Positions 1,419-30,490 of a stretch of DNA of 64,000 nucleotides are shown in pieces (within the stretch, counting starts at the first letter, position 1; each line of letters opens with the position of its first letter). The notes beneath the pieces are model-generated. The model worked only from the letters and a program-made list of their open reading frames with translations, was not told where the DNA came from and searched no databases. Source of the stretch: a virus (lineage: Duplodnaviria > Heunggongvirae > Uroviricota > Caudoviricetes); the IMG/VR virus record IMGVR_UViG_2939142107_000001, positions 1-64,000 of that record; one strand, given 5' to 3'. The translations under genes and the position numbers were made by a program.

Positions 1419-2615
1419 ATGAGTGATTCCAGCCAGCTTCACAAGGTTGCTCAAAGAGCAAACAGAATGCTCAATGTTCTGACTGAACAAGTACAGTTGC
1501 AAAAGGATGAGCTACACGCGAACGAGTTTTACCAGGTCTATGCGAAAGCGGCACTGGCAAAATTGCCTCTACTGACTCGTGCGAACGTTGACTATGCCGT
1601 AAGTGAAATGGAAGAAAAGGGTTATGTTTTCGATAAACGCCCTGCTGGCTCTTCAATGAAATATGCGATGTCAATTCAGAACATCATCGACATATATGAA
1701 CATCGCGGAGTGCCAAAATACCGGGATCGCTACAGCGAAGCGTATGTGATTTTCATCTCCAATCTTAAAGGCGGTGTGTCAAAAACTGTATCGACGGTTT
1801 CTCTGGCGCATGCAATGCGTGCTCACCCTCATCTTCTGATGGAAGATTTAAGGATTCTGGTTATTGACCTTGATCCGCAATCTTCAGCAACGATGTTTTT
1901 AAGCCATAAACACTCTATTGGTATCGTAAACGCAACATCTGCACAGGCTATGTTGCAGAATGTAAGCCGTGAAGAGCTGTTAGAGGAGTTTATTGTTCCT
2001 TCTGTTGTACCTGGGGTTGACGTTATGCCTGCGTCGATTGACGATGCCTTTATTGCATCCGATTGGAGAGAGCTGTGCAATGAGCATCTACCGGGTCAGA
2101 ACATCCATGCAGTACTGAAAGAAAATGTGATTGATAAGCTGAAGAGCGATTATGACTTTATCCTCGTTGATAGTGGTCCTCACCTTGACGCCTTCCTGAA
2201 AAATGCTTTGGCCTCGGCCAATATATTGTTTACACCTCTGCCGCCTGCAACGGTTGATTTCCACTCATCGCTTAAATACGTTGCCCGTCTTCCTGAGTTG
2301 GTGAAACTCATTTCGGATGAAGGCTGCGAGTGTCAGCTTGCAACTAACATTGGTTTTATGTCCAAGTTGAGTAACAAGGCAGACCATAAGTATTGCCATA
2401 GCCTGGCTAAAGAAGTGTTCGGTGGGGATATGCTTGATGTTGTCCTCCCTCGCCTTGACGGTTTTGAACGCTGCGGCGAGTCTTTTGACACTGTTATTTC
2501 AGCTAACCCGGCAACGTATGTTGGTAGTGCTGATGCATTGAAGAACGCGCGAATTGCTGCGGAAGATTTTGCTAAAGCAGTTTTTGACCGTATTGAATTT
2601 ATCAGATCTAACTGA
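1419..2615 (+). CDS. parA: Partition ATPase ParA (type Ia)
   Basis: 398-aa ORF with RBS AAAGGA; deviant Walker A (ISNLKGGVSKT); sits between repA and parB. Size matches P1 ParA. Confidence 0.9.
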   Translation: MSDSSQLHKVAQRANRMLNVLTEQVQLQKDELHANEFYQVYAKAALAKLPLLTRANVDYAVSEMEEKGYVFDKRPAGSSMKYAMSIQNIIDIYEHRGVPKYRDRYSEAYVIFISNLKGGVSKTVSTVSLAHAMRAHPHLLMEDLRILVIDLDPQSSATMFLSHKHSIGIVNATSAQAMLQNVSREELLEEFIVPSVVPGVDVMPASIDDAFIASDWRELCNEHLPGQNIHAVLKENVIDKLKSDYDFILVDSGPHLDAFLKNALASANILFTPLPPATVDFHSSLKYVARLPELVKLISDEGCECQLATNIGFMSKLSNKADHKYCHSLAKEVFGGDMLDVVLPRLDGFERCGESFDTVISANPATYVGSADALKNARIAAEDFAKAVFDRIEFIRSN

Positions 2616-2631
2616 GGAGTAAGAAACCCCC

Positions 2632-3633
2632 ATGTCAAAGAAAAACAGACCAACAATTGGGCGAACCCTTAATCCTTCAATATTAAGCGGATTTGATAGT
2701 TCTTCATCCTCTGGCGATCGAGTCGAGCAGGTATTCAAGTTATCAACTGGTCGCCAGGCCACATTTATTGAAGAGGTAATACCTCCGAACCAGGTAGAAA
2801 GCGATACCTTTGTTGATCAGCATAACAACGGGCGTGACCAGGCATCTCTTACGCCAAAATCATTAAAAAGTATCCGAAGCACTATTAAGCATCAGCAATT
2901 TTACCCTGCAATAGGTGTTAGACGGGCTACAGGGAAAATTGAAATTTTGGATGGTTCCCGGCGTCGAGCTTCTGCCATCTTAGAGAACGTAGGGTTGCGG
3001 GTTTTAGTCACGGACCAGGAGATCAACGTTCAGGAAGCGCAAAATTTAGCGAAAGACGTTCAGACAGCATTGCAGCACAGCATTCGAGAAATAGGTCTGC
3101 GTTTGATGCGAATGAAAAATGATGGGATGAGTCAGAAGGATATTGCAGCCAAGGAAGGGCTGTCTCAGGCGAAAGTCACGCGTGCTCTCCAGGCAGCGAG
3201 TGCTCCGGAAGAATTAGTCGCCCTTTTCCCTGTGCAGTCGGAATTAACCTTTTCGGACTACAAAACGCTTTGTGCTGTTGGCGACGAAATGGGGAACAAG
3301 AATTTAGAGTTTGATCAGCTTATTCAAAACATATCCCCGGAAATAAACGACATCTTATCCATTGAAGAAATGGCCGAAGATGAAGTTAAAAATAAAATCC
3401 TGCGCTTGATAACAAAGGAAGCCTCACTACTCACGGATAAAGGTTCTAAAGATAAGTCCGTAGTTACTGAATTATGGAAATTTGAGGACAAGGATCGCTT
3501 TGCAAGGAAGCGCGTGAAAGGCCGTGCATTTTCTTATGAGTTTAATCGACTTTCAAAAGAGCTACAGGAAGAACTCGACAGGATGATTGGGCATATCCTT
3601 AGAAAGAGCCTCGATAAAAAGCCGAAGCCTTAA
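2632..3633 (+). CDS. parB: Partition centromere-binding protein ParB
   Basis: 333-aa ORF with RBS GAGGAG, immediately downstream of parA and followed by parS boxes. Size matches P1 ParB. Confidence 0.9.
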   Translation: MSKKNRPTIGRTLNPSILSGFDSSSSSGDRVEQVFKLSTGRQATFIEEVIPPNQVESDTFVDQHNNGRDQASLTPKSLKSIRSTIKHQQFYPAIGVRRATGKIEILDGSRRRASAILENVGLRVLVTDQEINVQEAQNLAKDVQTALQHSIREIGLRLMRMKNDGMSQKDIAAKEGLSQAKVTRALQAASAPEELVALFPVQSELTFSDYKTLCAVGDEMGNKNLEFDQLIQNISPEINDILSIEEMAEDEVKNKILRLITKEASLLTDKGSKDKSVVTELWKFEDKDRFARKRVKGRAFSYEFNRLSKELQEELDRMIGHILRKSLDKKPKP

Positions 3634-3637
3634 ACTT

Positions 3638-3725
3638 TCGCCATTCAAATTCCACTATTAACCTACTGTTTTTAAAGTAAATCCATCTAAAATTTCAAGG
3701 TGAAATCGCCACGATTTCACCTTGG
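3638..3725. other. parS: parS partition centromere (ParB box B TCGCCA and box A ATTTCAC motifs around an AT-rich core)
   Basis: TCGCCA at 3638-3643; ATTTCAAGGTGAAATCGCCACGATTTCACCTTGG at 3692-3725 holds heptamer box A and hexamer box B in the arrangement known for P1 parS. Confidence 0.75.
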
Positions 3726-21815: not shown

Positions 21816-22171
21816 TGGCCAACAATAACGAAATTGATCCTTTGCTGACGCTGGAGTTATCCGGCGTAAAAACGTATGAGTCCCAGGAGGAGGCCTGGGG
21901 CGCTCGTTTATATGAGTGGCTAAACACTTATCAGGGTGAGGTATACGGAGATCCGTCATGGGGCAATGTTTTACCGCAGTTTAAACACGAACCGACCAAC
22001 TTGTCGCATGTTCAAATTGCGGTTGAGGCAATGCTGTTGCAAAAACTGACGGTAGATTTACCTGACATACCGATTTCTGGCTTGTCAGTAGCCGAGGGAG
22101 ATGCTTTTGATAAGTTGAAAATATCCATTCGTATCAGGGATATAACTATCACACAGGACGTGGTGCTATGA
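21812..22171 (+). CDS. Small baseplate/tail assembly protein (hypothetical)
   Basis: 119-aa ORF overlapping the sit stop (ATGA) and the next gene. Confidence 0.4.
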   Translation: MMANNNEIDPLLTLELSGVKTYESQEEAWGARLYEWLNTYQGEVYGDPSWGNVLPQFKHEPTNLSHVQIAVEAMLLQKLTVDLPDIPISGLSVAEGDAFDKLKISIRIRDITITQDVVL

Positions 22172-23601
22172 GTAAAACAACACCGACTAAAGACAGTATT
22201 CGTGCAGAGTTTGAAGAGCTTGTCGAGAAAGATTCATTCTGGTCGAAGTTTGTCGGCTCTCAATTTGTCTCGATGCTGACATTGTTTATTACCCAGATTG
22301 TCTACAGGTGCTTTCAGTATGCCGATGCGGCGCTGGCTGAAGGCTTTATATCGACCGCGACGCGGCGTTCCTCTATCCTGGCAGCGGCAGAAACGAATAG
22401 TTACGTTGGTACCAAGCCAACACCGTCATCGGGGATGATTGAGATCACCGCCACAAGTGAAGATGCCCCAGCGGTAATCCCCAAAAACATGCCTTTAATA
22501 TCTGACGACCAGTACCCTTACATGACTATGGATGTATGCAGGTTGGTTGACGGCACCGGTACGGTAGAAGTGGCACAGTTGGAAATCCAGGAGGTGACAT
22601 ATACCGTTACGGCAGCCAAAGAATTTCTGGAAGTCGTGTTATCAAAGGCTCTTACTGCTGTCTGCTATAAGCTGGAAGTATTCGTGACGACCGATGGTAA
22701 GACCACGCAGTGGTCTTCCAGCACTATGTTCCGGTTAGCCGGTAGTAAAAGCCAGGTCTACGTTGAGTTTTATAAACCATCCGAGCAGTTGGGGGTTCGA
22801 TTCGGCGATGGGCTAATTGGGCAAATACCGCCAGAAGGTTCGACAATTACGCTTAAGGTATGGTGCACCAACGGCGATATAACCCTGGTTGCTGGCCAAA
22901 ACCTGACGCCTGTCGATTCTGCGGCTAATTTAGCTAATTTGATTTCAGTTAAGACAACGACACCTATAACCGCAGGTACCGATGCTGAAACAACGGAGAT
23001 CACACGTAACCGTGCACAATATTACCTTGCCTATGATGATCAGGTCGTATGGGGCGGGGACTATACGTATTTTCTGGTTCGTAACATCCCGGGGCTGTCC
23101 TGGGTAAAGGCATGGGGCGAAGGCCAGCAAGAGAAATTAGATGGTGCTTATAATGTTCAGAATATCAATAAGATATTTATTTCAGGATGGCATCCAAATA
23201 AAAGCCAGTCAGAGCTTGAAGAAATGATCCTGACTGCCTTTAAGAAGGTACCGAATGAACTGAACAAGAAATTCTCTTATAAAGAGGTCAGAAAACTACC
23301 ATTTAAGATAACCATCACCGGGCGGATATCGGCAAGCCTGACTATTGAGAACGTGACTGATGAGTTGAAGTCGGCACTGGAAACAAAATTTGGGCGCGAC
23401 TCAAATTTCTTTGATCCGAACGGTGTCGGCAAGTACATCCTGATCAAGAAAAAAGACGTTTGGGCATTTATCGAAACGCTGGGTTATTTCCGCGACTTTT
23501 ATCTGGAATTTGTCGAGTGGAATGAGTCCAACGGCTTTTACGATTTCGTTTATCTGGATACAGAAAACTCCACCTTTAATATTTCGTATGAGGAGGAGTG
23601 A
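22168..23601 (+). CDS. Baseplate protein (hypothetical, 477 aa)
   Basis: Translationally coupled to flanking genes; position between sit and the tail fibre genes. Confidence 0.45.
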   Translation: MSKTTPTKDSIRAEFEELVEKDSFWSKFVGSQFVSMLTLFITQIVYRCFQYADAALAEGFISTATRRSSILAAAETNSYVGTKPTPSSGMIEITATSEDAPAVIPKNMPLISDDQYPYMTMDVCRLVDGTGTVEVAQLEIQEVTYTVTAAKEFLEVVLSKALTAVCYKLEVFVTTDGKTTQWSSSTMFRLAGSKSQVYVEFYKPSEQLGVRFGDGLIGQIPPEGSTITLKVWCTNGDITLVAGQNLTPVDSAANLANLISVKTTTPITAGTDAETTEITRNRAQYYLAYDDQVVWGGDYTYFLVRNIPGLSWVKAWGEGQQEKLDGAYNVQNINKIFISGWHPNKSQSELEEMILTAFKKVPNELNKKFSYKEVRKLPFKITITGRISASLTIENVTDELKSALETKFGRDSNFFDPNGVGKYILIKKKDVWAFIETLGYFRDFYLEFVEWNESNGFYDFVYLDTENSTFNISYEEE

Positions 23602-24437
23602 TGCAACGTTCCTGGTTTAATAATCGGCTTACATCAGCTAAGCAAAAGTCATTGCTCTATAAATCATTGGCTGATTTGGTTCAGTCAATGATGGACACCT
23701 TTGTTGACCCATGGTTGGAGCGAATTACCAACCGGAAGTCTATTTTTTCCATGAGCAAGGAGGATCTGGAGACCAGGACAAATGAACTTGGCCAGTTCTT
23801 TACTATCAGAACCTCAAACTCATCTTCCGTTCCGATGTTGTTACAACAGCGGCTTGATGAGATTCACTTTAAGGGGACTGAACGCCCTATAAACCAGACA
23901 ATTTACCGCGAATTTAATGGTATTTCTGTTTTATGGGATCCGATATATGCACCGGTGGACCTTGAACGTCATCCCTATGGCACAGTTCTAATACCAGAAA
24001 GCACACTGGAAACTACCGGCGGCACATTCGGCGAGATGTTTCTGACTTCCAGAGGGATGATCAGTATTCCCATAAACGACCTGGCCCGGACAATGGGTAT
24101 TACTGGCACGATAGATCAGTCCGCAATTACAGAAGAAATTCTCAGAAAGTTTAATCAGTTCGTAAAGCCTCTACTGCCACTGCATATAGTGTTTGATGGG
24201 CTTACGCTCTATTTGTCGGTTGTTGTGAATGAACAGGCCGACATGATCACTTTGAACGAGATTTCTGATACCGAAAAAGCGTACTGCTGGTTTGAAACTT
24301 CGGATACAACTTCGCTTACTGGAGTTACGTCGATTAGCGCCCCGATCACCGCAACGCCTGGTGGCACTATTGTGAAAGCGACACCTACGTTTGATCGCAC
24401 ACGCGCAGATGATTTGTTGCTGGATAGCGACGCCTGA
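23598..24437 (+). CDS. Baseplate/tail-fibre attachment protein (hypothetical, 279 aa)
   Basis: ATGA overlap with upstream gene. Confidence 0.4.
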   Translation: MMQRSWFNNRLTSAKQKSLLYKSLADLVQSMMDTFVDPWLERITNRKSIFSMSKEDLETRTNELGQFFTIRTSNSSSVPMLLQQRLDEIHFKGTERPINQTIYREFNGISVLWDPIYAPVDLERHPYGTVLIPESTLETTGGTFGEMFLTSRGMISIPINDLARTMGITGTIDQSAITEEILRKFNQFVKPLLPLHIVFDGLTLYLSVVVNEQADMITLNEISDTEKAYCWFETSDTTSLTGVTSISAPITATPGGTIVKATPTFDRTRADDLLLDSDA

Positions 24438-24515
24438 CAATCACCCCGTCCGCAGGGCGGGGTGACAAGTTACTTCTCTTACAATGAGGCTTCACAACAT
24501 TGATTAGGGAAAATC

Positions 24516-24950
24516 ATGTCTGACGTCTCAACAAACCTCTATAAGAGTCAGTTGTTGGACTATTACTATCAGCGGCGCGCTGAATCGTCCATTAACAAAG
24601 GCTCTCGATTTTTAATCAGCAAGGCCGTTTTCGGTACCAGTTCACTGGTTACTAAGAAAGGAGATGGCACTTATGAGATTGGAGAACTGCCAAAGGCTTT
24701 CGATCTGGCAGAACTGACCAGTAAATTTTGCACCATCAACCTCGTCCCAACCTACTCAGGCGGGATAATTACTGTCCGAATGGACCTTGATCAAAGCCAG
24801 TTGCAGAAAGGGAAAAACTACCCATTCAACACTCTGGTTGTTCTGGATAACGAGAACAAGCCAATCGCCATTATTTGTGTCCAGGAAGACTCGCTGTATG
24901 TGGGCAAAACATATACCGCAGTTATGGCCATAAACACGACTACAGCATAA
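24516..24950 (+). CDS. Tail fibre-associated protein (P1 R position)
   Basis: 144-aa ORF immediately upstream of the tail fibre gene. Confidence 0.45.
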   Translation: MSDVSTNLYKSQLLDYYYQRRAESSINKGSRFLISKAVFGTSSLVTKKGDGTYEIGELPKAFDLAELTSKFCTINLVPTYSGGIITVRMDLDQSQLQKGKNYPFNTLVVLDNENKPIAIICVQEDSLYVGKTYTAVMAINTTTA

Positions 24951-24961
24951 GGATATGCTTG

Positions 24962-27900
24962 ATGAATGACGTTACAGTTGTCACATCGGTTACTTACCCA
25001 TCACCCGAGTCGTTGGCTCTGGTGGCTGATGTGCAATACCACGAACCATATCTGTCAGCCGCGCTAAACCGAAAATTCAGGGGAATTGTTGACCCTGGAT
25101 TTTATGCCGGTTTTTTTCCTAAGCCTGGCGGTGGGATGAACCTGTTAATCACCTCAGTGGATGGTGATAAAACCGCTGGCGCGGCGTCAGTGAATATTGG
25201 TGAATTCTACCAGGTAACTATTCAGCAGCGTAAGGATATTTCTCTTGCACTTAGCGCAGGTAAGAAATATGCAATTGTGCTGAAGGGAAGATACCTCCTT
25301 GGAGAAGATTCTTATCAGGTTAATACCGCGTCACATATTCATGCGGCTGAATTTGTTGCCAGAACCTATACCGATTCATATCAGTTAGGAGATGGGGAAC
25401 TGCTTGTTTGTACGGTGAATATCCCTGCTGGCGTATCTGCTATTACTAAGGAAATGATAGATGTATCCGACCGCATCGATCTCGCGATAGGCATTGAAAT
25501 TTCCGACTCTGTAACCAGTACCAGAAGTGATGTCGCTGCAAGTTCGCTGGCGGTTAAAAAAGCCTACGATCTGGCTAAAAGCAAGTATACGGCGCAGGAT
25601 GCAAGCACAACACAAAAGGGATTAGTTCAGCTCAGTAGCGCAACTAACAGCGACAGCGAAACAATGGCGGCTACCCCTAAAGCCGTTAAGTCTGTAAAAG
25701 AGCTGGCTGATACCAAAGCGCCAATAGAAAGCCCGAGTCTGACAGGAACGCCAACCGCGCCGACGGCAGCGCAAGGTACAAACAGCACGCAGATCGCAAA
25801 TACAGCCTTTGTTAAGGCAGCTATAACGGCACTTATCAACGGTGCACCTGGCACACTGGATACGCTTAAAGAAATAGCTGCTGCGATCAATAACGACCCG
25901 AATTTCAGCACAACTATCAACAATGCTCTGGCTCTTAAAGCTCCTTTAGCAAGTCCTGCATTAACGGGAATACCTACTGCGCCTACCGCTGCACAGGGTA
26001 CGAATAACACGCAGATTGCTACGACCGCTTATGTAAGAGCTGCTATCTCTGCATTGGTCGGCTCATCACCTGAAGCTCTTGATACCCTGAATGAGCTTGC
26101 AGCAGCACTGGGCAATGACCCGAACTTTGCGACAACAATGACAAATGCGCTGGCAGGCAAACAGCCTCTGGATGCAACTTTAACCGCGCTTGCTGGTCTT
26201 GCGACAGGCGCAAATAAATTGCCGTACTTTACCGGTACAGACACTGTTTCCCAGACTGATTTAACGTCAGTCGGTCGCGATATCCTGGCTAAAACAAGCA
26301 CACTGGCTGTTATCCAATACCTTGGTTTAAGAGAAATCGGAACCAGCGGCGAAAAGATCCCCCTGTTGAGCACAGCTAATACCTGGAGTTCTCAACAGAC
26401 TTTCAAAGGTAAGACAGCGTTTTCAGCCGCTGCTACATTTAGTGCCGGGATAGCAGGAGCCATCGAGCCGGAAAAAATTGGCGACCAGACGGTTGATCTT
26501 AACAACCTGACCATCAGCTCAGATGTCGGGGCAATTAAATATTATTATTGTCCAACCTTTGGAGGTGGTGCAAATATCACCAACAAGCCTGACGGCGTAA
26601 ACGGTAACTTTTTGCTCCGTGTAGAGTCGACTCGCAAAGTTTCTGCTTCGGATTATGCGAACATGCAAACGCTGATCAGCAACGACACAAAACGTATATA
26701 CGTTCGCTTTGTTGTTAATGGAAGCTGGGCAGCGTGGAGTCAGGTTGTTGTTTCCGGATGGGGTCAGGATGTAAGTGTTAAGTCTCTTAGTGCCGTGGCT
26801 CTTAGTGGATCTTTGACAGGTAATGCATCCACCGCCACAAAACTGCAAACAGCACGCACAATCGGCGGAGTGTCGTTCGATGGTAGTGCCAATATCGACC
26901 TGCCGGGCGTGAATAAAGCAGGTAATCAGAGCACTACCGGCAATGCTGCAACCGCTACGAAACTGCAAACAGCCCGCACAATCAACGGTGTTAAGTTTGA
27001 TGGTTCTGCGAACATTTCGATACCAACAATTACGTCCAGAGGGCGTGTTACTGCGCTCACCGATACAACACAAGGTGCTGCTACTGGATTGCAGATGTAT
27101 GAGGCGTACAACAATAGCTACCCGACCGCGTATGGCAACGTATTGCACATGAAAGGTGCGAGTGCTGCTGGTGAGGGCGAGTTGCTTATTGGCTGGAGTG
27201 GTACGAGCGGTGCACATGCGCCGGTTTTCATTCGCTCCCGAAGAGATCACACTGATGCGGCATGGTCAGCGTGGGCGCAGGTATATACATCAAGGGACTC
27301 CATTCCTGGTGTGAATGCCACTGGCAATCAGAATACAACTGGCAATGCAGCAACTGCTACAAAACTACAGACGGCAAGAACTATCGGCGGAGTTAGCTTT
27401 GATGGTACTGCGAATATTAATTTACCTGGTGTTAACGTTGCGGGTAATCAGAATACATCCGGTAACGCGGCTACAGCGACCAAGTTACAAACCGCTAGAA
27501 CTATAAATGGGGTGTCGTTTGACGGTTCTAAAAACATTGAGCTAACTCCAAGGTCTATAGGCACGATCAACTCAATAACAATGTCTTTTAGTGGTGGTGC
27601 TGGATGGTTCAAGCTGGCAACTGTAACCATGCCACAGGCCAGTTCCGTGGTTTACATAAGCCTGATTGGTAGTTCTGGATATAATGTTAACTCCCCTATG
27701 CAGGCTGGTATATCTGAACTTGTTCTTCGTGCGGGAAATGGGAATCCAAAAGGTCTTACTGGTGCGTTATGGCGACGGACATCGGTTGGATTTACTAATT
27801 TTGCATGGGTGAATACATCCGGTGATACCTATGATGTTTATGTTGAAATAGGTAATTTCGCCACGGGTGTAAATATCCAGTGGGATTATACCAGTAACGC

Positions 27901-29662
27901 CAGCGTAACGATTCATACATCACCATCTTATACAGCGAATAAACCAACAGGCCTGACAGATGGAACTGTATATGTAATTTACAGTTCGCACATTAAACCG
28001 ACCGCCACGGATGTCGGCGCATTACCAATAACCGGAGGAAATCTCAACGGCGGTTTAACGGCTACTGGTGAGATCATTTCAAAATCGGCGAATGGTCTGC
28101 GTATTGCCTACGGAAACTACGGATTCTTTATCCGAAACGATGGTTCAAACACATATTTCATGTTGACCAATTCGGGTAACAGCCTGGGAACCTATAATAA
28201 TTTAAGGCCGCTTATCATTAACAATGCCAATGGTACTGTTACGATCGGTAATGGACTCAATGTTACTGGCGGCATCAATGGTAGTTTGAACGGTAATGCT
28301 GCAACTGCAACAAAACTGCAAACAGCACGCACAATAGGCGGAGTGTCATTCGATGGTAGTGCCAATATCGACCTGCCAGGTGTGAATAAAGCAGGTAATC
28401 AGAGCACTACTGGCAATGCTGCAACTGCAACAAAACTGCAAACAGCACGCACAATCGGCGGAGTGTCGTTCGATGGTAGTGCCAATATCGACCTGCCGGG
28501 CGTGAATAAAACAGGTAATCAGAGCACTACCGGTAATGCAGCTACGGCTACCAAATTGCTAACAGCGCGTACCATTAATGGGGTTTCATTTGACGGTTCT
28601 GCGAATATTTCACTGTCACCAGCAAATATTGGTTGCCCGGCATCTCCTACTGGTTGGTTAAAAACAGGTAATAACGGTGAGTCAATAACGACAGCTCAGT
28701 TAGTTACTTTGTTGCAAAATAATGGGGCATTCAATACGAAAGCATGGTTCGCTCGTTGTGCATGGTCGTATGCAACTAGTGCATCCATACCAGACAGTGA
28801 AACTGGTTGTGGCATTATTCCACTGGCGGGTGCTGTGATAGAAGTATTCAGCAATAATACCGACAATTACACTATTCGAATAACAACAGCCACGACGACA
28901 AGTGTCTCTGGTGCACTCACTAATGCGGAGTTTATCTATGTGTTTAACGTGTCTGGCAGCACAAGTTATTCACCTGGATGGCGCAGAGCGTATAACACTA
29001 AAAATAAACCTACTACTACTGACCTTGGCTTGAGCGATGAAAGTGGATACGTTGGGCGCCTGATAAGCACTAGGGTTTTCACGTCATCAGGTACGTACAT
29101 CCCGACGCCAGGAACAAAACGGCTCAGGGTCACAATAACGGGCGGCGGTGGCGGAGGGGGCGGCTGCAAGGCTACATCCAATAATGAAACGTTTTTCGGT
29201 GCTGGCGGTGGGGCCGGTGGAACAATAATTTCAATAATGACCCCGACACAGAATAGTTATCCAGTCACTATCGGCGCAGGTGGGGCCGGTGGTGTTAGTG
29301 CGACGAACGGCACCAGGGGCGGGAATAGCGTATTCGCATCGTTAATTGCTCCTGGTGGCGCAGGCGGCGGGAAAGTGGGTGTTACAAACACAAACGGCGG
29401 TAACGGAGGTGTGCCGAGTACTGGCGATATCCGCATCACTGGTGGAGATGGAGGCGACGGTCAGTCCGGAAATATCAGCGTCAGCGGTGAAGGCGGAACA
29501 TCGCACTGGGGCGGCGGTGGACGCGCAGGCGCTGGCGGTGGTGTTATCGGTAAAGCATATGGTTCAGGCGGAGGTGGCGCATACGATGCCGGTTATAGCG
29601 GAACCAGTATGACGGGCGGGAAAGGTGCTTCAGGGATTTGTATTATCGAGGAGTTTGCATAA
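24962..29662 (+). CDS. S: Tail fibre protein S: P1-like conserved N-terminus, central 40-aa tail-fibre repeats, C-terminal glycine-rich adhesin-like domain
   Basis: Probable start ATG 24962 with RBS AAGGA (ORF track begins earlier at 24875). N-terminus MNDVTVVTSVTYPSPESLALVADVQYHEPYL... matches recalled P1 S. Repeats GNAATATKLQTARTIGGVSFDGSANIDLPGVN recur at least 7 times. C-terminal ~170 aa are Gly-rich (GGGGGGGG, GAGGGAGG...). Confidence 0.8.
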   Translation: MNDVTVVTSVTYPSPESLALVADVQYHEPYLSAALNRKFRGIVDPGFYAGFFPKPGGGMNLLITSVDGDKTAGAASVNIGEFYQVTIQQRKDISLALSAGKKYAIVLKGRYLLGEDSYQVNTASHIHAAEFVARTYTDSYQLGDGELLVCTVNIPAGVSAITKEMIDVSDRIDLAIGIEISDSVTSTRSDVAASSLAVKKAYDLAKSKYTAQDASTTQKGLVQLSSATNSDSETMAATPKAVKSVKELADTKAPIESPSLTGTPTAPTAAQGTNSTQIANTAFVKAAITALINGAPGTLDTLKEIAAAINNDPNFSTTINNALALKAPLASPALTGIPTAPTAAQGTNNTQIATTAYVRAAISALVGSSPEALDTLNELAAALGNDPNFATTMTNALAGKQPLDATLTALAGLATGANKLPYFTGTDTVSQTDLTSVGRDILAKTSTLAVIQYLGLREIGTSGEKIPLLSTANTWSSQQTFKGKTAFSAAATFSAGIAGAIEPEKIGDQTVDLNNLTISSDVGAIKYYYCPTFGGGANITNKPDGVNGNFLLRVESTRKVSASDYANMQTLISNDTKRIYVRFVVNGSWAAWSQVVVSGWGQDVSVKSLSAVALSGSLTGNASTATKLQTARTIGGVSFDGSANIDLPGVNKAGNQSTTGNAATATKLQTARTINGVKFDGSANISIPTITSRGRVTALTDTTQGAATGLQMYEAYNNSYPTAYGNVLHMKGASAAGEGELLIGWSGTSGAHAPVFIRSRRDHTDAAWSAWAQVYTSRDSIPGVNATGNQNTTGNAATATKLQTARTIGGVSFDGTANINLPGVNVAGNQNTSGNAATATKLQTARTINGVSFDGSKNIELTPRSIGTINSITMSFSGGAGWFKLATVTMPQASSVVYISLIGSSGYNVNSPMQAGISELVLRAGNGNPKGLTGALWRRTSVGFTNFAWVNTSGDTYDVYVEIGNFATGVNIQWDYTSNASVTIHTSPSYTANKPTGLTDGTVYVIYSSHIKPTATDVGALPITGGNLNGGLTATGEIISKSANGLRIAYGNYGFFIRNDGSNTYFMLTNSGNSLGTYNNLRPLIINNANGTVTIGNGLNVTGGINGSLNGNAATATKLQTARTIGGVSFDGSANIDLPGVNKAGNQSTTGNAATATKLQTARTIGGVSFDGSANIDLPGVNKTGNQSTTGNAATATKLLTARTINGVSFDGSANISLSPANIGCPASPTGWLKTGNNGESITTAQLVTLLQNNGAFNTKAWFARCAWSYATSASIPDSETGCGIIPLAGAVIEVFSNNTDNYTIRITTATTTSVSGALTNAEFIYVFNVSGSTSYSPGWRRAYNTKNKPTTTDLGLSDESGYVGRLISTRVFTSSGTYIPTPGTKRLRVTITGGGGGGGGCKATSNNETFFGAGGGAGGTIISIMTPTQNSYPVTIGAGGAGGVSATNGTRGGNSVFASLIAPGGAGGGKVGVTNTNGGNGGVPSTGDIRITGGDGGDGQSGNISVSGEGGTSHWGGGGRAGAGGGVIGKAYGSGGGGAYDAGYSGTSMTGGKGASGICIIEEFA
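28292..28531 (+). repeat. Two near-identical 120-bp tandem units within S, with a third close copy at about 26818-26937
   Basis: Read directly from the sequence. Confidence 0.85.
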
Positions 29663-30072
29663 TGAATACGTCATATGCAGTTATTGAAAATGGGATGGTT
29701 GTGAATGTCATTGTCTGGGATGGCGAGGCTGAATTCACAGTGCCGGATAATCAGCAGCTCATTAATATTTCTGATATCAGTGAGCAGCCCGGAATCGGCT
29801 GGGTGTATTCAGACGGGGGATTTACTGCGCCACCCACTCCGGAACGTTCTCATGATGAACTGGTAGCTGACGCTGAACAGAAAAAAAAGTCGCTGATTGA
29901 TACCGCAATGGCTTCCATTAGTCTTATTCAACTGAAATTACAGGCCGGACGGAATCTTACGCAGGCTGAAACCACCCGTCTTAACGCTGTGTTGGATTAT
30001 ATCGATGCGGTGACCGCAACGGATACCAGCACTGCACCAGATGTCAATTGGCCAGCGTTCCCGGAGGCGTAG
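29662..30072 (+). CDS. U: Tail fibre assembly chaperone (U/Tfa-like)
   Basis: ATG at 29662 overlaps the S stop (TAATG); 136 aa; N-terminus MNTSYAVIENGMVVNVIVWDG... is typical of tail fibre assembly proteins. Confidence 0.7.
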   Translation: MNTSYAVIENGMVVNVIVWDGEAEFTVPDNQQLINISDISEQPGIGWVYSDGGFTAPPTPERSHDELVADAEQKKKSLIDTAMASISLIQLKLQAGRNLTQAETTRLNAVLDYIDAVTATDTSTAPDVNWPAFPEA

Positions 30073-30490
30073 CCCATTAAAAAAATATCTGGAGCGCTGG
30101 AAGTAACGACTGGTTCCAGTGCATCCAGATAAGATGATTACTGTTCATGCTTCAAGAGCGAGCGCATACTGCATCCAGGCCAATCTAACTTTCATTCGAC
30201 CAGAGTGTCACCTCTCAAAAGCATTTTTTAACTCTGGTCGTTCAGCCTTTTTGCCGCTCGCCTTATCCTCAAAAATTAGCTCACATCCTGCGCTTTCAAG
30301 GGCATTTCGTTGCTAAGCAGTGTTTTGTTCATTTGTTGATACGCGTACATAGCCTATTAGCATATTTTCTACTCACTATCGTTATTTATAGCAAGCTGCG
30401 GATTTTGATTAACAGAAACCAGTGTGTGTGGAAATCACAAAGTGCATACCGTGCCCCAATGATGTTTTATTGAAAAGCGGGGGTACTTTA

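Follow-up and report, generated by a model that had tools for sequence, protein, structure and literature searches.

A probable mosaic tail fibre of a P1-like phage-plasmid, with a fixed distal part in place of the Cin-invertible segment

Introduction

P1-like phage-plasmids spread resistance genes and serve as DNA-delivery vehicles, and the tail fibre protein S sets their host range. Mosaicism at conserved motifs, variable Sv parts and tail fibre assembly (Tfa) proteins that travel with the fibre tips are established for the fibres of P1, P2, Mu and T-even phages. In P1, the cixR site lies at the junction of the constant (Sc) and variable (Sv) parts of S, the 4.2-kb C segment consists of Sv-U and the inverted U'-Sv', and its cixL end adjoins the invertase gene cin. 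The stretch lydC-cin-Sv'-U'-U-S is listed among the hypervariable regions of P1-like plasmids (PMC9603915).

Here, the S gene and its surroundings are analysed in a window of 64,000 nucleotides (nt), positions 1 to 64,000 of the IMG/VR virus record IMGVR_UViG_2939142107_000001 (Caudoviricetes); coordinates are window positions unless S nt or amino acid (aa) numbers are given. The window is matched by pCARB35_01 (NZ_CP031654.1), a P1-like phage-plasmid of E. coli, with identical coordinates over the compared stretches. We consider it likely that S is the mosaic fibre of a pCARB35_01-type phage-plasmid of the P1 family, composed of Sc, a fixed continuation jointed by repeats, a Gly_rich_2 tip and a Tfa partner, and that the inversion switch has been lost.

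An intact S gene with a P1-type constant part

24962..29662, plus strand: S tail fibre gene, an intact open reading frame (ORF) with ATG at 24962 and stop codon at 29660-29662, 1566 aa
24962..26409, plus strand: P1 Sc-type constant N-terminal part, baseplate-proximal, with Phage_fiber_2 repeats (nucleotide identity; Pfam PF03406, two stretches)

S matches PHROG 454 (tail fibre; E 0), and a search of NCBIfam returned no match for S or Tfa. An initial annotation, made from the sequence alone, had described a P1-like N-terminal region in a protein much longer than P1 S, and both statements are borne out: S nt 1-1448 are 93.6% identical to P1 Sc, and the protein has 1566 aa compared to 987 aa in P1. 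The two S proteins share 74% aa identity over 676-701 aligned residues. By this alignment, the first ~483 aa of S are P1 Sc. The homology to P1 stops near 26409, which is 77 nt beyond the cixR crossover point.

The exact protein is found in nr on 91 contigs under the name tail fiber protein, S is covered at 80% or more in 37 complete E. coli genomes, and its length is exactly 4701 nt in each of the 30 best listed complete assemblies. Of 5426 complete E. coli genomes, 37-71 carry the lineage, and many of these are clinical.

Loss of the inversion switch

26313..26332, plus strand: orphan cixR recombination site, 20 of 20 bases as in P1 cixR, the sole copy in the window
30162..30363, minus strand: cin invertase remnant, reduced to ~200 nt from the 5' end, which carry an 11-nt deletion (aligned with P1 cixL-cin)

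When the region was aligned with P1 cixL-cin, cixL and the rest of cin were absent, and neither the annotation nor the comparison with P1 revealed Sv' or U' at the locus. RefSeq annotates the cin remnant as a recombinase pseudogene. A query comprising the tip, Tfa and cin was covered at 80% or more in 71 of the 5426 complete E. coli genomes, with the same arrangement. At the level of sequence, these comparisons show a single fixed continuation of 3.7 kb in place of the Cin-invertible C segment (Sv/U/U'/Sv'). Since cixR stands alone, cixL is missing and cin is a frameshifted stump, the fibre is locked in one configuration. The mosaic nature of the fibre, suggested by the initial annotation, is confirmed at its distal end also: alignment with P1 Sv/Sv' along the C-terminus was not found, with none past aa 1356.

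The orphan cixR is perfectly kept within S despite the dead cin and could be a target of Pin-, Gin- or Min-type invertases from other prophages. Between the end of the P2-like cassette homology described below (30078) and the cin remnant (30162) lie ~80 nt (30079-30161), and some chromosomal prophage matches reach ~30132 within this junction. The loss of the Cin/cix switch and the presence of an intact cognate Tfa gene were both absent from the initial annotation.

The glycine-rich tip

29051..29659, plus strand: tip, predicted TNF-like (tumour necrosis factor-like) beta-sandwich and glycine-rich lattice domain (Gly_rich_2, Pam3 gp24-like)

A glycine-rich C-terminal segment had been recognised from the letters, and it is indeed present, with glycine at 64 of 191 residues (33.5%) in aa 1375-1565. 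The domain search of the C-terminal part that had been proposed identified Gly_rich_2 (PF21722) at aa 1375-1563, scoring 44.6-46.1 bits against a gathering score of 24.3 and spanning profile positions 2-224 of 226. In a phmmer comparison with PDB sequences, gp24 of cyanophage Pam3 matched the tip from one end to the other (E 0.004), and a profile of 51 diverse family members reached E 1e-22 against the same protein, with an alignment that extends to its last residue. The AlphaFold2 model of the tip obtained from this 51-sequence alignment has a predicted local distance difference test score (pLDDT) of 90.7 and a predicted template modelling score (pTM) of 0.83; a shallow alignment (24 homologues, >82% identity) gave a pLDDT of 36.7, and only the diverse alignment worked.

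In Pam3, the strands of a TNF-like beta-sandwich run into six glycine-rich loops, which stack as a lattice; its stem is conserved, and its distal end is variable and is the proposed receptor binder (PMC9608196). The model predicts with high confidence that the last ~200 aa of S take this TNF-like and glycine-rich fold, and the domain matches support the view that the C-terminus of S is a receptor-binding-type tip. Searched exhaustively, a set of 1.84 billion representative proteins gave 1089 relatives of the tip domain at E<=1e-10; among the listed relatives, Gly_rich_2 is almost always at the extreme C-terminus. A profile search of a set of 5.8 billion proteins with the 51-sequence alignment added no diversity, returning only near-identical E. 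coli proteins of 308 aa. In a tblastn search of a phage collection with the tip, the low-complexity filter left the pre-tip domain and a partial match in phage Goslar.

The initial annotation had likened this segment to the glycine-rich adhesins of T-even phages. The corresponding explanation, that the C-terminus of S is a gp38-type adhesin module (the polyglycine-II sandwich of S16 gp38) fused to the fibre, draws on a likeness that concerns structural class alone, namely glycine-rich bundles of the polyproline II (PPII) type (PMC9608196; bioRxiv 10.1101/2023.11.25.568672). S had no match to Pfam GP38 even at E<=10, no gp38 chain was found in PDB sequence and profile searches with the tip (E<=1-10), and the gp38 structure 6F45 was not among the 50-60 matches listed in fold searches with the tip model. 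Moreover, the S ORF itself encodes the glycine-rich domain as its C-terminal end, fused to the fibre and with a Tfa chaperone as partner, whereas gp38 is a separate subunit. Pam3 gp24 and gp38 are reported to overlap in just 52 residues (PMC9608196). The absence of any GP38 or gp38 match, the absence of 6F45 from the listed matches and the fusion of the domain to the fibre make the gp38 analogy valid for the design principle and not for family membership, and we regard a true gp38 module as very improbable.

The tail fibre assembly gene

29662..30072, plus strand: Tfa, 136 aa, with its ATG overlapping the S stop codon (TAATG); Caudo_TAP

Residues 32-135 of Tfa match Caudo_TAP (PF02413) with 78.6 bits against a cut-off of 22.1, and PHROG 188 matches the protein at full length (residues 1-135). 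No similarity was found between Tfa and either P1 U or U'. Its relatives are elsewhere: in SfV-like prophages with a Mu-type baseplate, the 308-aa Gly_rich_2 fibre is followed by a Tfa of 138 aa, to which the window Tfa has 86% identity over 134 aa. The whole of Tfa, its N-terminal part included, accompanies Gly_rich_2 tips at 86-98% identity, and the exact sequence is present on 243 contigs.

In an SfV-like prophage of E. coli (our locus L004, 5001-5927), the 308-aa fibre gene stands after a homologue of Mu gp48 and before the Tfa gene. NCBI records widely give the name 'carbohydrate kinase' to Gly_rich_2 fibres of this kind in prophages with Mu-type baseplates, which concerns hundreds of related proteins. 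SfV orf21, the short tail fibre of SfV itself, was considered as a possible named relative and rejected; it shares with the 308-aa fibres only the N-terminal anchor of ~103 aa and has no glycine-rich domain. Both the C-terminus of orf21 and its Tfa in SfV orf21/orf22 (locus L008, 2501-3563) are unrelated to those of the 308-aa fibres and represent a further example of tip-cassette exchange.

Repeats and shaft segments

26411..26818, plus strand: globular segment 1, a presumed knob, aa 484-619 (translation; no Pfam match)
26819-26938 and 26939-27058, plus strand: repeats R1 and R2; R1 has 92-94% DNA identity to R5/R6
27059..27340, plus strand: globular segment 2, aa 700-793 (translation; no Pfam match)
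27341-27460 and 27461-27580, plus strand: repeats R3 and R4, 40-aa units
27581..28291, plus strand: shaft segment with T4 gp34-type trimerisation domain (Pfam PF21446)
28292-28411, 28412-28531 and 28532-28651, plus strand: repeats R5, R6 and R7 in tandem; R5/R6 have 94% DNA identity
28652..29041, plus strand: distal pre-tip domain, aa 1231-1360 (PDB sequence match 8ju3)

Seven copies of a 40-aa repeat, with the consensus GNAATATKLQTARTIxGVxFDGSANI..., are arranged in S in the layout 2+2+3 (aa 620-699, 794-873 and 1111-1230), each group being followed by a non-repetitive segment. The initial annotation had counted at least seven copies, two of them near-identical 120-bp tandem units with a third copy 1.4 kb upstream, and this description holds: R5 and R6 are the tandem pair, and R1, 1473 nt upstream of R5, is 92-94% identical in DNA to both. 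Exact shared runs measure 81 nt between R1 and R6, and runs of 41 nt also occur between copies. Among the remaining copies, identity is 52-72% in DNA and 60-88% in protein. Tandem Repeats Finder (TRF) detects a period of 120 nt with 2.3-2.7 copies, and a separate repeat finder gives the same units. The repeat core has four matches in the window, where none is expected, and all four lie inside S. An assembly artefact as the source of the repeats, which had been named as a possible refutation, was ruled out by the uniform 4701-nt length in all 30 best listed assemblies; the occurrence of the exact protein on the 91 nr contigs agrees with this.

No close relative of the 40-aa repeat with a solved structure was found: comparison of the repeat region with PDB sequences gave only a weak match, to the stalk of phage L Dec (E 0.14). 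Pfam models are absent both for this repeat and for the globular parts that separate the repeat groups. The repeats of gp34 and gp12 are alpha-helical (PMC5537660) and appear to be a different motif.

The RefSeq name of a related S protein is 'pyocin knob domain-containing', and segment 1 (aa 484-619) may be a knob. The PF21446 match at aa 1009-1086 scores 99.2 bits against a cut-off of 27, and aa 1008-1111 match PDB sequences of T4 gp34 (4uxe, 5nxf) and Mu S (5yvq). Further along, aa 1204-1359 match PDB 8ju3, 'Tail fiber protein S/S'', and the pre-tip domain is ~44% identical to P1 Sv', D6 and lambdoid side tail fibres. The shaft may thus be pictured as globular segments connected by repeat linkers.

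Mosaic joints and fibre length

The boundaries of homology between S and other fibres lie within the repeats or beside them. That of P7, RCS47 and D6 ends at S nt 2457, in R3; that of CMS-2020a spans S nt 2376-3648, from R3 to R7; and in related plasmids it ends at S nt 3516, 3594 and 3650, in R6 and R7. In plasmid pSvP1_F the block 26410-27353 is absent, with R3 and R5 as the rejoining points. The fibre of p2_035123 corresponds to window positions 25715-27018 (95% identity) and 28409-29662 (99.4%), which overlap in a single repeat pair; since the two matched stretches join at one repeat pair, this fibre is without exactly 1593 nt (531 aa) between R1-R2 and R6-R7. Differences of exactly 120 nt occur in several other relatives, and at the R5-R7 site related plasmids have two copies compared to three in the window. 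These alignments support the view that the repeats act as recombination joints altering fibre length, on the evolutionary scale only. Among the 30 best listed near-identical copies, no repeat-number or length variants were found, and so nothing points to a switching of length inside populations. Consequently, the proposal that the repeats are substrates for length-changing recombination stands with respect to the mosaic boundaries and p2_035123 and is unsupported among the near-identical copies.

A stronger version of this proposal would have the near-identical 120-nt units drive frequent switching of repeat number or fibre length within a phage population, replacing Cin inversion. The exact runs of 81 and 41 nt between copies speak for it, as do the lineages that differ by whole repeat units or by blocks reaching from repeat to repeat. 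However, all 30 of the best listed near-identical copies are equal in length, the variants come from diverged lineages with flanks of <=95% identity, and a tandem pair sharing an exact run of 41 nt makes a weak substrate. We see very little chance that such switching takes place.

Exchange of the tip cassette

28626..29525, plus strand: stretch with 100% identity to the tip of the H tail fibre in a P2-like chromosomal prophage (gapless comparison with NZ_CP158344.1)

The comparison with NZ_CP158344.1 (our locus L009, 4501-5400) was scored per 150-nt block, and each block is 100% identical up to 29525. Beyond it, identity drops to 96-97% in 29526-29825 and then to 78-82% in the remainder of Tfa. 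NZ_CP158344.1 is the chromosome of strain 116333, and the same strain also has a plasmid of the S lineage with a slightly different tip allele. To the fibres of SfV-like prophages, the tip and Tfa are ~88% identical in nt. On these comparisons, the tip (~345 aa) together with Tfa is a portable cassette.

Two plasmid variants with S 99.1-99.2% identical to that of the window were compared over S and Tfa. Their 41-42 S differences are all confined to 28766-29632, the first 3.8 kb being free of them; 26-28 of them are non-synonymous and 13-16 synonymous. This confinement indicates that the tip has been replaced or diversified while the rest of S stayed fixed. The initial annotation had named S the likely host-range determinant, and plasmids that are otherwise identical and differ in the tip alone fit this role.

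Gene neighbourhood

24467..24485, plus strand: P1 late promoter LPs, upstream of R; -22 box and -10 hexamer identical to the annotated P1 LPs
24516..24950, plus strand: gene R, tail fibre attachment or assembly; syntenic with P1 R, both 144 aa

The gene order around S is P1-like: sit, pmgA, bplA, 16, R, S, the chaperone gene, lydC, lydA and lydB. The place of 16-R-S-chaperone in an operon downstream of LPs, with lydC/A/B next, is the P1 arrangement, and the spacer of LPs has one mismatch to the annotated P1 promoter. The ORF at 22168-23601 is a homologue of the P1 baseplate gene bplA; its label 'bleomycin hydrolase' in NZ_CP031654.1 is probably a misannotation.

Model and its evaluation

According to the mosaic fibre reading favoured above, S would form a trimer, as Pam3 gp24-gp25 and Mu S-Tfa suggest. 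The putative two-domain mechanism of Tfa draws on Pfam membership and on analogy with Pam3 gp25 and Mu Tfa: the N-terminal domain would clamp the glycine-rich tip (PMC9608196), and the conserved C-terminal helical domain would gather three S chains. Because the helical domain would bring the three chains together there, the folding of S may start at the C-terminus. Host range would no longer be toggled by DNA inversion and would change only via homologous recombination, either by blocks gained or lost at shared repeats or, as a second route, by replacement of the tip allele from co-resident prophages.

Several observations weigh against this reading. In several records, the Prokaryotic Genome Annotation Pipeline (PGAP) and RefSeq flag S as a pseudogene 'missing C-terminus' and Tfa as 'missing N-terminus'. 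Tfa gave chance-level matches only against PDB sequences, none of them to Pam3 gp25 or Mu Tfa. Finally, the AlphaFold2 model of the tip is a monomer and not a trimer.

The first of these points bears on the status of the gene. The flagged S end points are 28495 in NZ_CP031654.1, 29401 in NZ_CP158325.1 and the window equivalent of 29527 (record position 24219) in NZ_CP101260.1. As the end points vary by record and no stop or frameshift is present, the flags on S and Tfa look like artefacts. In the case of Tfa, the 'missing N-terminus' label is very probably wrong, since the protein matches Caudo_TAP, PHROG 188 and the 138-aa homologue at full length. Pseudogene status of S was ruled out by the open ORF, which is open also in the 99.1-99.2% identical variants.

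It has nevertheless to be asked whether the long S is decaying, as recombination debris that a defective prophage-plasmid kept unused after the C segment was lost. The pseudogene state of cin and the PGAP records in which S and Tfa are marked partial or pseudo would agree with decay. Decay does not fit a 4701-nt ORF without a stop, of the same length in the 30 best listed assemblies and open in the close variants, nor the intact late promoter, the overlap of the Tfa start with the S stop, the full length of Tfa relative to its homologues, or the exact S protein on 91 contigs. We regard this explanation as unlikely.

Another possibility is that RecA-type recombination serves as a working host-range switch, via the repeat DNA or the tip alleles of co-resident P2-like and SfV-like prophages, with the orphan cixR usable by Pin or Gin in trans. 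In such a case, a single lysogen would re-assort the length and the tip specificity of its fibre at a measurable frequency. This possibility seems to us very unlikely. Under the favoured reading of a fixed mosaic fibre, the locus indicates that a classic inversion switch can be lost, a fixed fibre taking its place, and that the conserved 40-aa repeats are the seams where fibres get re-assembled. The Pam3-type tip with its small Tfa is a common portable cassette across P1-like, P2-like and SfV-like E. coli prophages, with up to 100% nt identity. The findings may be of use in predicting or engineering host range and in correcting 'carbohydrate kinase' names and spurious pseudogene flags.

Comparison with known systems

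The closest system is P1 S with its Cin/cix C segment (also P7 and p15B Min). Window S is like it in operon position, late promoter, Sc and the presence of cixR within the gene, and both proteins are modular with repeats. Window S differs in having no invertible segment, Sv'/U', cixL or working cin; its C-terminal 1080 aa are of other origin, and its Tfa is unrelated to the P1 chaperones U and U'.

Regarding the tip, Pam3 gp24/gp25 (PDB 7ypx, 7yfw; PMC9608196) is the solved counterpart. Pam3 gp24 is a minimal protein of 280-289 aa with a helical anchor, whereas the same tip type caps a 1360-aa shaft in window S. Mycobacteriophage Bxb1 has the gp33 'tail wing brush' and the gp29 tail spike (PDB 9d93), which differ in host, virion position and surrounding domains. 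The glycine-rich 'TG' domain of ALK/LTK (PDB 7lir, 7nx3, 7ls0) belongs to the ectodomain of an animal receptor tyrosine kinase, has a larger lattice and bears no functional relation to S. The gp38 adhesin of T-even type (Salmonella phage S16, PDB 6F45) likewise offers a glycine-rich PPII-type scaffold with variable loops, but it is a separate subunit on the gp37 tip and a beta-solenoid, in contrast to the TNF-like sandwich fused in S, and there is no detectable sequence homology.

The nearest relatives of the tip are the E. coli prophage Gly_rich_2 fibres: it is 83-93% identical to the 308-aa proteins of SfV-like prophages (Mu-type baseplate). In SfV-like, P2-like and window fibres, the shared tip is followed each time by the same Tfa of 136-138 aa, and the N-terminal anchor or shaft that precedes it measures 90 aa in the SfV-like fibres, ~410 aa in P2-like H and ~1220 aa in window S.

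The known picture of tail-fibre evolution is unchanged by this locus. The tip fold is already known, having been solved in Pam3 and Bxb1, and the S protein is already deposited as a tail fibre. Three features are specific to the S locus on the comparisons made here: a widespread clinical plasmid lineage has lost its Cin switch, a P1 fibre ends in a Pam3-type tip, and this tip is identical in nt to that of a P2-like prophage.

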